DNA of 64,000 nucleotides from Nitrososphaeria archaeon (GTDB lineage Archaea; Thermoproteota; Nitrososphaeria; Nitrososphaerales; JAAOZN01). The stretch covers positions 71,807 to 135,806 of the forward strand of contig JARVJZ010000005.1 in assembly GCA_029775855.1 (NCBI GenBank). Reading direction: 5' to 3'. The notes below the pieces were generated by a model. The model made no database searches, was not told the DNA's origin, and worked only from the letters and a program-made list of their open reading frames with translations. Position 1 is the stretch's first letter; each line of letters begins with the position of its first letter. A program made the translations under genes and the position numbers. Of the stretch, positions 52,634 to 56,949 are shown piece after piece.

Positions 52634-53188
52634 CTATTCATTTAACAAAATTTCTATAGCAACCCCTTGACTTATAAGTGGCTTAGCGTTTTCGAGCGGT
52701 ATAGTAGCTACATCTTCAGGCTGAAATGGACCATACTTCTGTAAGTCCACACCTATTATAGCATCAAATGGTTTTAGGAAGCGTAGTGTGACTAGTTTTT
52801 TTATGCTGCGTTCCTGTATGCTTGTAAGTAGGGAGACTTGTCCGTTCTTTAGGGCGTTTTCGATCTTATTTATTCGCTGCTTCACCGACGCTTCGGCTTC
52901 AAGTATGTATCTCTCTTCGGCTAGGAGGTTTGCTTCTTGAAGTTTTAGACCATTTTTTGCTTTGGTTAACCTAAGTTGCAACAGATTTAATGTGATCTTT
53001 AATATGAGTTCCTTTTCTCTTGCCTTTAGATGTGTGAGCAAAGTTTCTGTGAAATGGTCTGTGTTTCGCGCATTCTTTAGAAATAGAGCAACGGATCTGT
53101 AAAGGTCTTGCGGTATGCTTCTAAGCTCTTTATCTACCATCTCCTCTTCAAGCAGCTTACCGAGTAGGTTAAGGTTCATTTCGGTCAA
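52634..53188 (-). CDS. GINS complex subunit (Gins51-type)
   Basis: Helical N-domain; C-terminal I.GVDL..YGPF...DVA.IP..NA..L...G.A; adjacent to priS. Confidence 0.85.
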   Translation of the reverse strand: MTEMNLNLLGKLLEEEMVDKELRSIPQDLYRSVALFLKNARNTDHFTETLLTHLKAREKELILKITLNLLQLRLTKAKNGLKLQEANLLAEERYILEAEASVKQRINKIENALKNGQVSLLTSIQERSIKKLVTLRFLKPFDAIIGVDLQKYGPFQPEDVATIPLENAKPLISQGVAIEILLNE

Positions 53189-53192
53189 CGCC

Positions 53193-54329
53193 CTACACCA
53201 TCTTTGCTAAGCCTTGCCCCAGTAGGTATACTGCTGCTGCAAGTGGTAGTTTAACTTTCTGCGCTTCTTTGAATTTATAGTTCTGGTCTAGCATGGTGAA
53301 GTGAAGAGCGTGTGTGATTTCCACTTCAACCTTTTCTTCACCGAAGGCTACTGCGTCAACGAAAGGATTGAATTCATCTAAAGAGTAGACCCTCTTCTTT
53401 ATTAAACCTGTTTCTCCGTGTAGTGTGCCGGGAAGCCTGAGTATTCTATGTACATCTGTTGTGACATTTGTATCTATTGTTGCACCCATTTGTCTTGCGC
53501 ATTCCTCTAGAACTTTCTTGAAGCCGCTGTATCTGGTTTTTGTGTAGAGTTCTATAATATTCTTCTTCGGGTCTTCTTTGCCCTTGTTCGCAAAGTATTC
53601 TGCGATTCTGCCCCTCCAGCCGCCTTCGTCTATGCGAGGTAGTCTGCTTATAAGTTCGTCTGCTGTCGCTCTTTTGGAGATTCCTATGAACTCTGGTATA
53701 AGCCCTCTACCACATACATAGTCTGCGAGCTCCATCCTACCCATTTGATCTAGGTTTTCATAGGCTGTGTCTTCTAGTATTATGTGATAACCTTTGCTTC
53801 CAGAAAAGTAGACTTTGATCTGCTTTTTTGTGAAACCTAGGTCACTTATCAGAATCTCTATTAGCTTGTTTGCTTCGTGTTTCGCGCCGTTTAAGCAGTT
53901 TCGACAGACCATATTTAGCTGTGTGAAAGATGTGCTGCCGCAGATGCATCTTTTGGGTTTGTTTCCCCGACCTTGTCTACCACATTTGCTGCATGACCAT
54001 ATGTCGTGTTCTTTTTTGCATTCTAGGTTTAGGTCGTCACAGTCGATGTCGAAGGCGATGTCTGCGCCTTTCCATCCTTTTTCTTGCATCGGCAGGGTTG
54101 GCTCATAGTAGTATGCGATTGAGTAGTAGAAGGCTCTTGGAGCCTCTTTTACCAGCTGAGCCTTTAGCTCGCCTTCGTTTTTGTATGATAGATGCCTAAT
54201 CATGCTTCCTCCGAATGGTAGGTATCCGAATTCTCTTTCTGAGATTCTGCTTGGTACCTCTACTTCCTCTATCCTATTGTAGTAATAGTGTTTAAAGAGC
54301 TGCTTGAGGAATGCTTCTACTCGCTCCGT
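53193..54329 (-). CDS. priS: DNA primase small (catalytic) subunit; start uncertain, no canonical start before the conserved N-terminus
   Basis: FDIDCD, Zn-knuckle, FSG.KGYH, D..VT.D.HRI.R.PG.LH motifs. In-frame F..YY...P..I..REFG segment lies upstream of the first ATG (54203). Start placed provisionally at ACG 54329. Confidence 0.9.
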   Translation of the reverse strand, partial: TERVEAFLKQLFKHYYYNRIEEVEVPSRISEREFGYLPFGGSMIRHLSYKNEGELKAQLVKEAPRAFYYSIAYYYEPTLPMQEKGWKGADIAFDIDCDDLNLECKKEHDIWSCSKCGRQGRGNKPKRCICGSTSFTQLNMVCRNCLNGAKHEANKLIEILISDLGFTKKQIKVYFSGSKGYHIILEDTAYENLDQMGRMELADYVCGRGLIPEFIGISKRATADELISRLPRIDEGGWRGRIAEYFANKGKEDPKKNIIELYTKTRYSGFKKVLEECARQMGATIDTNVTTDVHRILRLPGTLHGETGLIKKRVYSLDEFNPFVDAVAFGEEKVEVEITHALHFTMLDQNYKFKEAQKVKLPLAAAVYLLGQGLAKMV

Positions 54330-55348
54330 TTCTTTGGCCCCCCTTTTGCCTTTACCCTTCTAAATTGGAGTGGGTTCTTTATGTCGTCACAGTCTTCGGT
54401 TTTGAAGCAGAATGCATGTGTTTGGAGGGTTCTGCAGCTTGGTGGCTTATACTTTGTTCCCCCGCCTCTGAGCCCAGCTATGTGCTCGACTTGGTACCGT
54501 GTTATCCGCTCGTTGAAGTCTGGTGCCTTCGCAAATAATGCTACAACTTCCTCAACGCTCTTCCCTATATTAAGTAGGTATGTAGTCATTAGGAAGCGTC
54601 CATAATGCGGTATATTCTGCCCTTTTTGCAGAAGATCGAGCGCGTGCTGAACACATGGAGGGTATTCTGTCGGTCTTACTGTTGTCTGAACTATGGGTGT
54701 TAGAGCCTTGATGACCTTTTTCAACTCTTCAACAGCTTCTTGGAGTGCTGGTGTTGGTGTCGGCTGCTGCAGTGATTTTATGCGGCTATATATCATCATT
54801 CTGATCTCCTCTCTTATAAGCCTCGTCAGAGCATGTGTAGTTAAGTAGACAAACCCTTCTTTCACTACCCGATTCACCAGCTTCCACTCCGGGCTATGTA
54901 GGTGAACAGCCCTCTTAAGGTATTCAACTACTGGAATCCTATAATCATATTGCACACCACCAAAAACCTCACACACTTCTCCAAGATCTATACCAGAGAC
55001 AACCTTAAAGATGTAGGATACCAAAGCCTTCTTATCTTCACGCTCTATGAAACTCTCAACCCTACGTGCTTCAGCGAGAGAAAACTTTACAGCCAGTTGC
55101 TCAACACCGATAAGCTTCACAAGTAACAGCGCTATGTGGAAGGAGAGCAGCTCTTTGTCGCTATCAGTGAACTCTTCACTTACACTGCCAGTCTTATAGG
55201 CTTGGAGTAGCCGCTCCTTAGCTCTATAGAGTATCGGAGCATAATCTGGTTTATCTAAATCCTCTAGGCTTACATTCAAGTTGCTTATGTACTCTCTCGC
55301 TTCCTCTAAGAAGGGATACTTTGCTCGATCTTCAGTGCCTAACTGCAA
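54317..55348 (-). CDS. priL: DNA primase large subunit
   Basis: KYPFL, W.LVNR.V..G.V, PPC, H..RF, PDF.E..TRYQ..H and Y..PSC motifs; Fe-S cysteines. Confidence 0.93.
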   Translation of the reverse strand: MQLGTEDRAKYPFLEEAREYISNLNVSLEDLDKPDYAPILYRAKERLLQAYKTGSVSEEFTDSDKELLSFHIALLLVKLIGVEQLAVKFSLAEARRVESFIEREDKKALVSYIFKVVSGIDLGEVCEVFGGVQYDYRIPVVEYLKRAVHLHSPEWKLVNRVVKEGFVYLTTHALTRLIREEIRMMIYSRIKSLQQPTPTPALQEAVEELKKVIKALTPIVQTTVRPTEYPPCVQHALDLLQKGQNIPHYGRFLMTTYLLNIGKSVEEVVALFAKAPDFNERITRYQVEHIAGLRGGGTKYKPPSCRTLQTHAFCFKTEDCDDIKNPLQFRRVKAKGGPKKRSE

Positions 55349-55374: not shown

Positions 55375-56949
55375 CTATATTTCCCTTCGCCTAAGTAGTG
55401 GGGTTTTACTTTCGACCCAGAGGAACTTTCGCTGCATAGATTTAGGGTATATGAGCTTCCAGTCGAGTCCTATCTGCTTTGCCCATCTATAATAGACCCT
55501 TGGGTCTATATAGTTCTTTAAAGAGGTATTCAAGTTATATTCTTTGATGGCTTTAGCGAGCTCTAGTTGTAGTTTTACTTTTCTGATTCTCTGCTCAAGC
55601 CTCCGCAGACCTTTTTCGGTTTTAGGTTTTGGGGCGGATAGGAGTTTTGCAAGCCTCTCCTCCTTCTTTCTTATGCTCTCCTCCCAATTCTTTGGGGGTG
55701 TGCGTTTATGGTTGCATTTTATAGCAGCCTCTAGGTTCGCTAGCTTAGCGTAGTATAGTTTAACGTACTCGTCTTCATCCTTAAGGGTGCCGTTTCTCTG
55801 CTCAAGGAAGTCTTTTACAGTCTTTGTTGCTATGTAGGTGCGGAAGACCTTTGCTGTAAGCCCTTTATCAAATTTCTTAAGAAAGCTATTAACTTTTTCG
55901 GATGTGATGCCATCAAATATTAAATCTTGAGGGGTCTTGCCTACAGTGAACTCTTTGAAGTTCTCTATGAGTTGTGGATCGGGTTTCTCTAATGTCTTCT
56001 GCCACCTTACGCTATCCTTACCTAAGAAGTCGAAATCTATACTATCTTGATTTATCTTCACATGCTCCACTCTTAGTGTTGTGGCACCAACAGTATCTGC
56101 TTCGTCTTCATCCTTCTCATCACCAACCCTCAGAGCCAAAGCATCTATAAGGTAGCACACGGTAGCAACCTTCCGAACCTCTTTCTTCTTTGAAGAAAGC
56201 ATCTTCTTTATTTCGCTTCTAATCCGAGCAATCTTCTTTTCAAGCTTCGCTGCAGTTTCATACTTAAGCAAGTCTTGCCGCTGTCTCAGAAAAGATGATT
56301 CAGACAACCACACATACTTATTTTTGCTAGGGTCGATCTTATCAACCCACTTAGCAAGCCACATACTTGTATGATCGTGCACCACACCACCCCAACGCCC
56401 TTCTGGTATAGGCGCGTCTTCACCAAGATTCAGTGTCACATCCTCAGGCTTAACCCTCTCCTTCCACTTGCCGCGAAGAGGGTGATTACCTCTGCCCATA
56501 AATATTCCAGGCGGTTCAACCATCCAGTTTGATACCTCAACAGTTATACCGTCAACTATAGCGTAGCCATATTTTGCTTTGAGTTCTTCACGCTTCTTCT
56601 TACGCTCTTGGGCTAGCCGCTTCTTTTCCTCCTTGCTCAGCGACTCTTTAGCCTTCTTCTCTTCGTCAACTAGTTTGTAAAATTCAGATAAATCTATCTC
56701 ATTGAATGTGACATCTCTGTAATTTGGGGGTAGATGTGCTCTTAGGGATTCAAGAAAATTCTTTTGGAAGACTATGTCTTTCACGTATGGTGTGTCCTTC
56801 TTCTTCGCCCAATTATAGAACATTTCTTCTGCTAGAGGGTTGAGTGTTATCCACTCTCCTCTTAGACCAACCTTTACTCCTTTAGGTTCGTATTCCGGAG
56901 GGAAGGCTACACCATTATGCACCAGCGTCGTCCAGCGTCTTCCCTTCAA
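55375..56949 (-). CDS. DNA topoisomerase IB (eukaryote-like, single chain)
   Basis: W.TL.HNG, EPPG.F.GRG.HP..G, LRVG.EK, F.FLGKDS, AKVFRTY, CNH.R and TS..NYIDPR motifs. Confidence 0.95.
   Translation of the reverse strand: MKGRRWTTLVHNGVAFPPEYEPKGVKVGLRGEWITLNPLAEEMFYNWAKKKDTPYVKDIVFQKNFLESLRAHLPPNYRDVTFNEIDLSEFYKLVDEEKKAKESLSKEEKKRLAQERKKKREELKAKYGYAIVDGITVEVSNWMVEPPGIFMGRGNHPLRGKWKERVKPEDVTLNLGEDAPIPEGRWGGVVHDHTSMWLAKWVDKIDPSKNKYVWLSESSFLRQRQDLLKYETAAKLEKKIARIRSEIKKMLSSKKKEVRKVATVCYLIDALALRVGDEKDEDEADTVGATTLRVEHVKINQDSIDFDFLGKDSVRWQKTLEKPDPQLIENFKEFTVGKTPQDLIFDGITSEKVNSFLKKFDKGLTAKVFRTYIATKTVKDFLEQRNGTLKDEDEYVKLYYAKLANLEAAIKCNHKRTPPKNWEESIRKKEERLAKLLSAPKPKTEKGLRRLEQRIRKVKLQLELAKAIKEYNLNTSLKNYIDPRVYYRWAKQIGLDWKLIYPKSMQRKFLWVESKTPLLRRREI

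Follow-up and report, generated by a model that had tools for sequence, protein, structure and literature searches.

The gene for the primase small subunit, priS, lies on the minus strand of the stretch of archaeal DNA analysed here (the window), which spans 64,000 nucleotides (nt) and corresponds to C5:71807-135806 of G000, a 1.51-Mb genome of a Nitrososphaeria archaeon in 6 contigs. Comparison with related genomes suggests that priS is translated from an ACG codon at 54329-54327, giving a PriS protein of 378 residues, a reading to which a probability of about 0.8 can be given. That this ACG marks the start of priS, either by near-cognate reading or by editing of the messenger, is very probable on the same comparative evidence. 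Apart from the start codon, PriS is an ordinary protein, and the new element would be the codon itself, an apparent ACG start kept naturally in archaeal priS and in a gene for a TRAM-domain protein.

The priS frame is open from 54359 and begins KGKGKRGAKETERVEAFLKQLFKHYYY. Read along the minus strand, four A residues (54347-54344) and six G residues (54343-54338) are followed by 8 nt (54337-54330) and then by the ACG, which sits 10 nt ahead of the stop codon of priL, the gene for the primase large subunit. The run AAAAGGGGGG (54347-54338) is inside the overlap between both frames, which measures 43 nt for the whole open priS frame and 13 nt if counted from the ACG. No ATG, GTG, or TTG is present in the priS frame between 54359 and 54203. 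A preliminary description of this DNA had placed the opening of the frame at 54359, a TAG at 54362-54360, the 43-nt overlap, and the first canonical start at 54203, and all these positions proved right on re-reading the minus strand; its remark that no ATG, GTG, or TTG precedes 54203 holds both in the list of open reading frames (ORFs) and in the sequence.

PriS and the position of its start codon

The identity of the protein is clear from several comparisons. PriS matches PF01896 with an E-value of 6.7e-16 (59.5 bits against a cut-off of 26.8), and the solved S. solfataricus PriS, 1ZT2_A, with an E-value of 7.1e-38, where query residue 17 corresponds to chain residue 13; human PriS can also be aligned, from about residue 13. 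The columns F103, D104, I105, and D106, together with S186, G187, G190, Y191, and H192, and with R308, P310, T312, and L313, are invariant in an alignment with relatives (A1), and H314 is nearly so. These columns belong to what we take to be the catalytic acidic motif FDIDxD and the SGxxGYH and RLPGTLH motifs. Likewise, the four cysteines of a zinc-binding insertion (C123, C126, C138, and C140) are invariant in A1. The protein thus resembles the S. solfataricus primase 1ZT2 in its catalytic and zinc motifs, and also in the adjacency of priL and priS, and differs from it only in the start codon.

The 42 codons from the ACG to 54203 are coding. In 17 genus-level sequences, codons 6-42 past the ACG hold 6, 12, and 34 variable sites at codon positions 1, 2, and 3, respectively (37 sites each), and 19 codon columns vary only synonymously in the priS frame versus 0 and 1 in the two alternative frames. 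Together with the alignments to 1ZT2_A and human PriS, this codon-position signature bears out the earlier proposal that the frame ahead of 54203 encodes the conserved PriS N-terminus. To our knowledge, NCBI table 11 does not list ACG as a start, and gene finders do not allow it. As a consequence, public annotations drop 42 residues of an essential protein: the product called for the window itself (P0002) has 336 amino acids (aa) and is 100% identical over 87% of the query, and eight clusters from relatives (P0004-P0011; 72–84% identity) are called at 334–337 aa, also covering 87% of it.

Regarding the position of the start, the methionine of seven other families falls in A1 one column off the threonine encoded by the ACG. 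Among 80 PriS loci from other Nitrososphaeria species, 77 hold a canonical ATG, TTG, or GTG 28–39 codons (mostly 32) before the REFG motif, and the ACG of the window stands 31 codons before this motif. The remaining three comprise one locus that could not be anchored and two without a canonical start, namely a member of the genus studied here, with its ACG 31 codons before REFG, and L108. The latter, the PriS locus of another Nitrososphaerales metagenome-assembled genome (MAG), holds a CTG at 32 and an ACG at 33 codons before REFG.

The GTDB family of the source organism consists of four genomes in one genus (G000-G003). These four genomes, 13 metagenome contigs with 72–74% protein identity—counted with the genomes as 17 genus-level loci—and two sequences from a second family make up a set of 19 loci with 18 distinct junctions, and the ACG is kept in 19 of 19. 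No in-frame ATG, GTG, or TTG occurs from the nearest upstream stop to the ACG at 17 of these 19 loci, and a canonical start is absent from G000, G002, and G003. G001 retains the ACG and also holds an ATG five codons ahead of it, which arose when the first G of the run mutated to T. In eight loci an in-frame stop lies 7 codons upstream of the ACG, and one locus (L037) presents a TAA in the priS frame only one codon ahead of it. The second family, represented by G022 and the metagenome locus L046 (~50% identity), combines AGGAG, 11 nt, and ACG in a different layout, where priL ends upstream in the same frame as priS, with two stops between both genes and no overlap. Here, within the first ~31 codons, no codon other than the ACG differs from ATG by a single base.

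The invariance of the ACG within the genus is partly due to priL, since the codon overlaps the priL codons AAA-CGG. Therefore, the clean tests of its conservation are the two sequences of the second family and the TRAM gene described below.

The 3' end of the 16S rRNA (...GGATCACCTCC) is able to pair, with one G-U pair, with the AGGGGGG ahead of the ACG, a Shine-Dalgarno (SD)-like site. Among the 17 genus-level loci, the run reads GGAGGG in 11 and GGGGGG or GGGGG in six. The distance from the end of GG[AG]GG to the ACG is 8–9 nt in all 17, and the AGGAG of the two second-family loci lies 11 nt away. A heuristic census of canonical starts behind such motifs in G000 gave a spacing peak of 8–9 nt, with ATG used 82 times, TTG 80, and GTG 21. 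In the window, AGGGGGG followed after 5–10 nt by ATG, GTG, or TTG yields seven matches at four places on the minus strand (24652, 31970, 32294, and 58642), against 1.09 expected from shuffled sequences. One of these places, 31970-31954, is the AGGGGGG-CAAAAAA-GTG arrangement that had been pointed out previously. The G-run variant of the SD site is a habit of this genome, and these comparisons mark the G-run as a putative ribosome-binding site rather than a slippery site.

The preliminary description had put forward initiation at the ACG as the first of three readings, and the position of the codon, its conservation at 19 of 19 loci, the SD spacing, and the existence of a second putative ACG-start gene all support it. 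Of the features of the junction that it singled out for comparison across relatives, the ACG is universal in this set, the uninterrupted run of six G is not, and the -1 overlap is missing from the second family.

A TRAM-domain gene with the same layout

A scan of G000 for coding sequence ahead of the first canonical start, in which priS ranked sixth, revealed a TRAM-domain gene outside the window, coding for a small RNA-binding protein that is widespread, with an equivalent arrangement of SD word and ACG. The first canonical start of this gene falls inside the TRAM domain. Thirty orthologous loci were compared from 40 relatives, and the aligned codon is ACG in 17, ATG in 10, and TTG in two, with one locus at a contig end; ACA, ACC, and ACT were found in 0 of 30. 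The N-termini read MSYG or LSYG in some orthologues and TSYG in others. The ACG-type loci are spread over eight families (f1, f3, f4, f10, f12, f14, f17, and f18), and a word of the AGGAG or GGAGG type precedes the aligned codon by 7–10 nt. As no upstream gene overlaps the TRAM gene, the third base of its ACG is free to vary, and yet it is invariant.

Nine of the 17 ACG-type loci hold no canonical in-frame codon before the ACG. In L059 the whole open frame lacks ATG, GTG, and TTG, and in L058 the TRAM domain comes before the first canonical codon. Among the genomes of the genus, G000/G001 and G002/G003 differ in the upstream frame owing to an indel of 1 nt that separates them between the SD word and the ACG, while the proteins of both pairs are 90–93% identical downstream of the ACG.

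A perfect hairpin of 6 bp with a 4-nt loop, conserved in the genus, is found directly 5' of the TRAM SD word (L054-L057), and a related sequence of the GCGCTAGGAG type is present in other families. This hairpin may represent a regulatory element of the 5' untranslated region.

Mechanism and alternative explanations

Initiation of priS at the ACG would proceed as follows. The G-run AGGGGGG (54344-54338) would pair with the 3' end of the 16S rRNA and position the 30S subunit, so that the ACG, 8 nt downstream, would be placed in the P site. The ordinary initiator Met-tRNA, with a CAU anticodon, would then read the ACG with a C-A mismatch in the middle position, and PriS would begin with methionine. 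Ribosomes that end priL, whose stop is 10 nt past the ACG, may also feed the priS start by coupling, although this would not be required, because neither the second family nor the TRAM gene shows such an overlap. G000 encodes a single initiator-type anticodon arm, CAU (C5, plus strand, near 155830). Two nearly identical tRNA-Thr(CGU) genes were detected (G000:C3:77965-78039, minus strand, and G000:C4:173693-173768, plus strand) and considered as dedicated ACG-reading initiators; both were discarded, being elongator-like and devoid of the GGG/CCC anticodon stem. With no initiator-like tRNA reading ACG, the reading of this codon by an SD-positioned initiator Met-tRNA would be the simplest mechanism. 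In E. coli, reporters covering the 64 codons gave protein with an N-terminal methionine from ACG, and some threonine in one culture (bioRxiv 10.1101/063800).

Several known systems resemble this one in part. Near-cognate ACG initiation occurs in eukaryotes and viruses, as in VP2 of adeno-associated virus and C' of Sendai virus. The priS case shares with them a conserved ACG in the role of start, presumably read by initiator Met-tRNA with a middle mismatch. However, the priS start would be chosen by an SD site 8–9 nt upstream within an operon, and not by scanning and a Kozak context, and the ACG would be the sole start of an essential gene instead of producing an alternative isoform. Among bacteria, the AUU of infC is a noncanonical start, and there, too, an SD site leads initiation at a codon one base away from AUG. 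The activity of ACG in E. coli, on the other hand, is the result of engineered reporters, whereas the ACG of priS occurs in nature and is kept in different species and families.

Regarding archaea, a review (PMC4705826) gives AUG, GUG, and UUG as translation starts, and describes aIF1, aIF1A, and aIF2 as homologues of eukaryotic initiation factors. Ribosome profiling of Haloferax assigned ~30% of the putative alternative initiation sites to near-cognate codons, which that study set aside (PMC7261190). A full-text literature search, with subscription journals outside its coverage, returned no published description of archaeal ACG starts.

Some observations weigh against ACG initiation. G001 may initiate at its derived in-frame ATG five codons upstream, and L041 has a TTG 21 codons upstream of the ACG, deep in priL. 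In the TRAM gene, eight of the 17 ACG-type loci do hold a canonical in-frame codon farther upstream, which in three of these eight is inside or right beside the SD word. ACG is a weak start wherever it has been measured, and aIF1 discriminates in vitro against the non-AUG codon AUU in S. solfataricus extracts (PMC4705826). Moreover, the scan described above, heuristic in nature, yielded just two ACG candidates in 1.5 Mb, with SD-preceded sites in 2 of 15 cases for ACG versus 31 of 1934 for all codons, a weak enrichment, and a second, differently filtered scan listed priS as the only ACG. Both scans judged coding by a home-made dicodon score and recognised SD sites from fixed words, and are blind to leaderless genes and to those with weak SD sites. 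These counts are too small for statistics; the comparative evidence carries the case.

A different route from the same codon would be a C-to-U editing of the mRNA that turns the ACG into AUG, with canonical initiation afterwards, which is considered unlikely. Editing and near-cognate reading account equally well for the strict specificity for ACG, seen at all 19 priS loci and at all 17 TRAM loci of the ACG type. Plant organelle genes, where C-to-U editing makes AUG start codons from ACG, offer a precedent with a genomic ACG at the start position and the same strict specificity. However, the conserved SD spacing is explicable without editing. We know of no C-to-U editing of mRNA, or machinery for it, in archaea, which also counts against this possibility. 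A 260-nt contig with a depth of 2.1 (X9) is unchanged at the ACG, a weak argument given that the run, filed as metatranscriptomic, was flagged as probably DNA; X13, the only run recorded as RNA, matches 53737-53896 plus a short repeat-like piece and leaves the junction uncovered. If editing were true, archaea would provide their first case of an mRNA edit that creates a start codon, one that acts on priS in two families and, for the TRAM gene, in at least eight.

It is quite improbable that translation starts instead at another codon, either a nearby noncanonical one (AAG 54359, AGG 54344, or GAA 54332) or the ATG at 54203. Like ACG, AAG and AGG differ from ATG at one base and lie within the open frame, and the ATG is the codon picked by gene callers. 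Nevertheless, AAG and AGG are not conserved, have no SD site at a working distance, and would lie upstream of an in-frame stop in 10 relatives; the open codons ahead of the ACG number 7 in eight loci, 1 in one locus, and 5 in both f20-type loci. As for 54203, a start there would delete ~47 fold residues that align with 1ZT2_A and human PriS, and these evolve as coding sequence.

The second reading of the preliminary description, a PriL-PriS fusion produced by a -1 frameshift or by an extra G at the A4G6 run, is now very unlikely. It drew on the -1 position of the priS frame relative to priL and on the overlap across the purine run, features shared with programmed -1 frameshift or slippage fusions such as those of dnaX and insertion sequence (IS) elements. 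Additionally, directly ahead of the ACG, the priL frame of G003 contains a perfect A_AAA_AAA heptamer. However, this heptamer is limited to the G003 type among relatives, and the window contains no slippery heptamer: as the same description had noted, and as can be read directly from the sequence, the priL frame lacks an X_XXY_YYZ heptamer throughout the overlap. Unlike the dnaX and IS fusions, priS has no conserved slippery site, and 11 of the 17 genus-level loci have an A within the run (GGAGGG). In L037, translation that shifted at the run would meet a TAA in the priS frame before reaching the ACG, and would terminate there. The second family lacks the layout altogether, with priL and priS in the same frame, two stops apart and without overlap, and the TRAM gene combines SD word and ACG in the same way without an overlapping gene upstream. 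No natural PriL-PriS fusion appeared among the proteins of 680–2000 aa searched, a negative result that the search itself flags as weak evidence. The single long-protein match, P0123, is a 912-aa PriS from a Diapherotrites MAG with an intein-splicing domain (PF14890), and not a fusion.

The third and last reading proposed was an error, in sequencing or in assembly, that turned ATG into ACG or seven G into six, and it can practically be discarded: homopolymer runs are error-prone, and the ATG of G001 arises precisely from a T replacing the first G of the run, but two contigs from elsewhere, X2 (another sample; 64 kb, depth 28.7) and X3 (another study; 7.6 kb, depth 7.4), show no change or indel in 54317-54362, and the ACG is kept by 18 distinct junctions from independent assemblies. 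Both contigs span 53193-55348, where X2 differs at four positions over 2156 nt and X3 at nine. This check used assembled contigs, not raw reads, and left out X1, the likely source sample; the runs holding the matching contigs are labelled as hot springs metagenome.

Initiation at the ACG by the initiator Met-tRNA would imply that archaeal initiation tolerates a mismatch at the middle position when a strong SD site sets the frame, bringing it closer to the near-cognate starts of eukaryotes than to the textbook prokaryotic picture. It would also imply that automatic annotation systematically shortens or loses ACG-start genes. Expression of replication proteins might conceivably be adjusted through the choice of start codon. 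ACG may be a regular SD-dependent start codon of Nitrososphaeria, in which case the accepted set of prokaryotic start codons would be incomplete. The preliminary description had spoken of an unusual translational control of priS; the comparative evidence supports the start position, and extends to neither the efficiency of initiation nor its regulation.

Gene layout and other possible noncanonical starts

The minus strand of the window holds four closely packed replication genes, coding for topoisomerase IB, PriL, PriS, and a Gins51-like protein. Their coordinates, with those of the elements of the priS start and of the TRAM gene, are collected in the table.

Table. Coordinates of the priS locus in the window and of the TRAM-domain gene elsewhere in G000.
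Feature	Position	Strand	Basis or remark
Topoisomerase IB gene	55375..56949	-	ORF list and Pfam; directly upstream of priL
priL, primase large subunit	54317..55348	-	TTG start at 55348; TAG stop at 54319-54317; Pfam PF04104, E-value 8e-36
priS, primase small subunit, putative extent	53193..54329	-	378 codons plus stop; PF01896; 1ZT2_A; alignment A1
gins51-like gene	52634..53188	-	PF22090; 4 nt past the priS stop
In-frame TAG closing the priS frame upstream	54360..54362	-	Read from the sequence
AGGGGGG, Shine-Dalgarno-like site	54338..54344	-	One G-U pair in the pairing with the 16S 3' end
ACG, putative priS start codon	54327..54329	-	8 nt past the G-run; comparative evidence
First canonical start (ATG) in the priS frame	54201..54203	-	Chosen by gene callers; 336-aa shortened product
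TRAM-domain gene	G000:C1:279395-279697	-	PF01938 on residues 35-92; GGAGGG-N9-ACG; outside the window

Other genes of G000 also seem to lack a canonical start. The carB gene (G000:C2, about 73380, minus strand) holds no N-terminal ATG, GTG, or TTG, and presents an ATA 9 nt past GGAGG. In A2 this ATA falls where G002 and G003 begin with GTG, and it is likely to be the start codon on the basis of this alignment. The same gene carries an exact in-frame insertion of 21 nt (about 73306-73286) between ...IGEAGE and FDYSG..., which G000 and G001 share and G002 and G003 lack. The insertion contains two stop codons (one in G001), and its predicted fold comprises a helix, a 3-nt bulge, a 5-bp helix, and a tetraloop, although the fold does not establish a canonical bulge-helix-bulge. 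It is a candidate for an mRNA mini-intron or, alternatively, for a disrupted gene.

Similarly, a hemerythrin-domain gene (G000:C1:105822-106229, minus strand; L050) has its whole domain, residues 10-104, ahead of the first canonical start. In its first nine codons, AAG and ATT are the only single-base neighbours of ATG, and a TATA-like box is located ~30 nt upstream. In a SIR2-like gene (G000:C5:30787-31884, plus strand; L051), the conserved ILGAGAS N-terminus precedes any canonical start, and GGAGGAGGG is followed by ATA, AAA, and ATC. The noncanonical cases, together with a frequency of TTG close to that of ATG, suggest a relaxed choice of start codon behind strong SD sites in this lineage.

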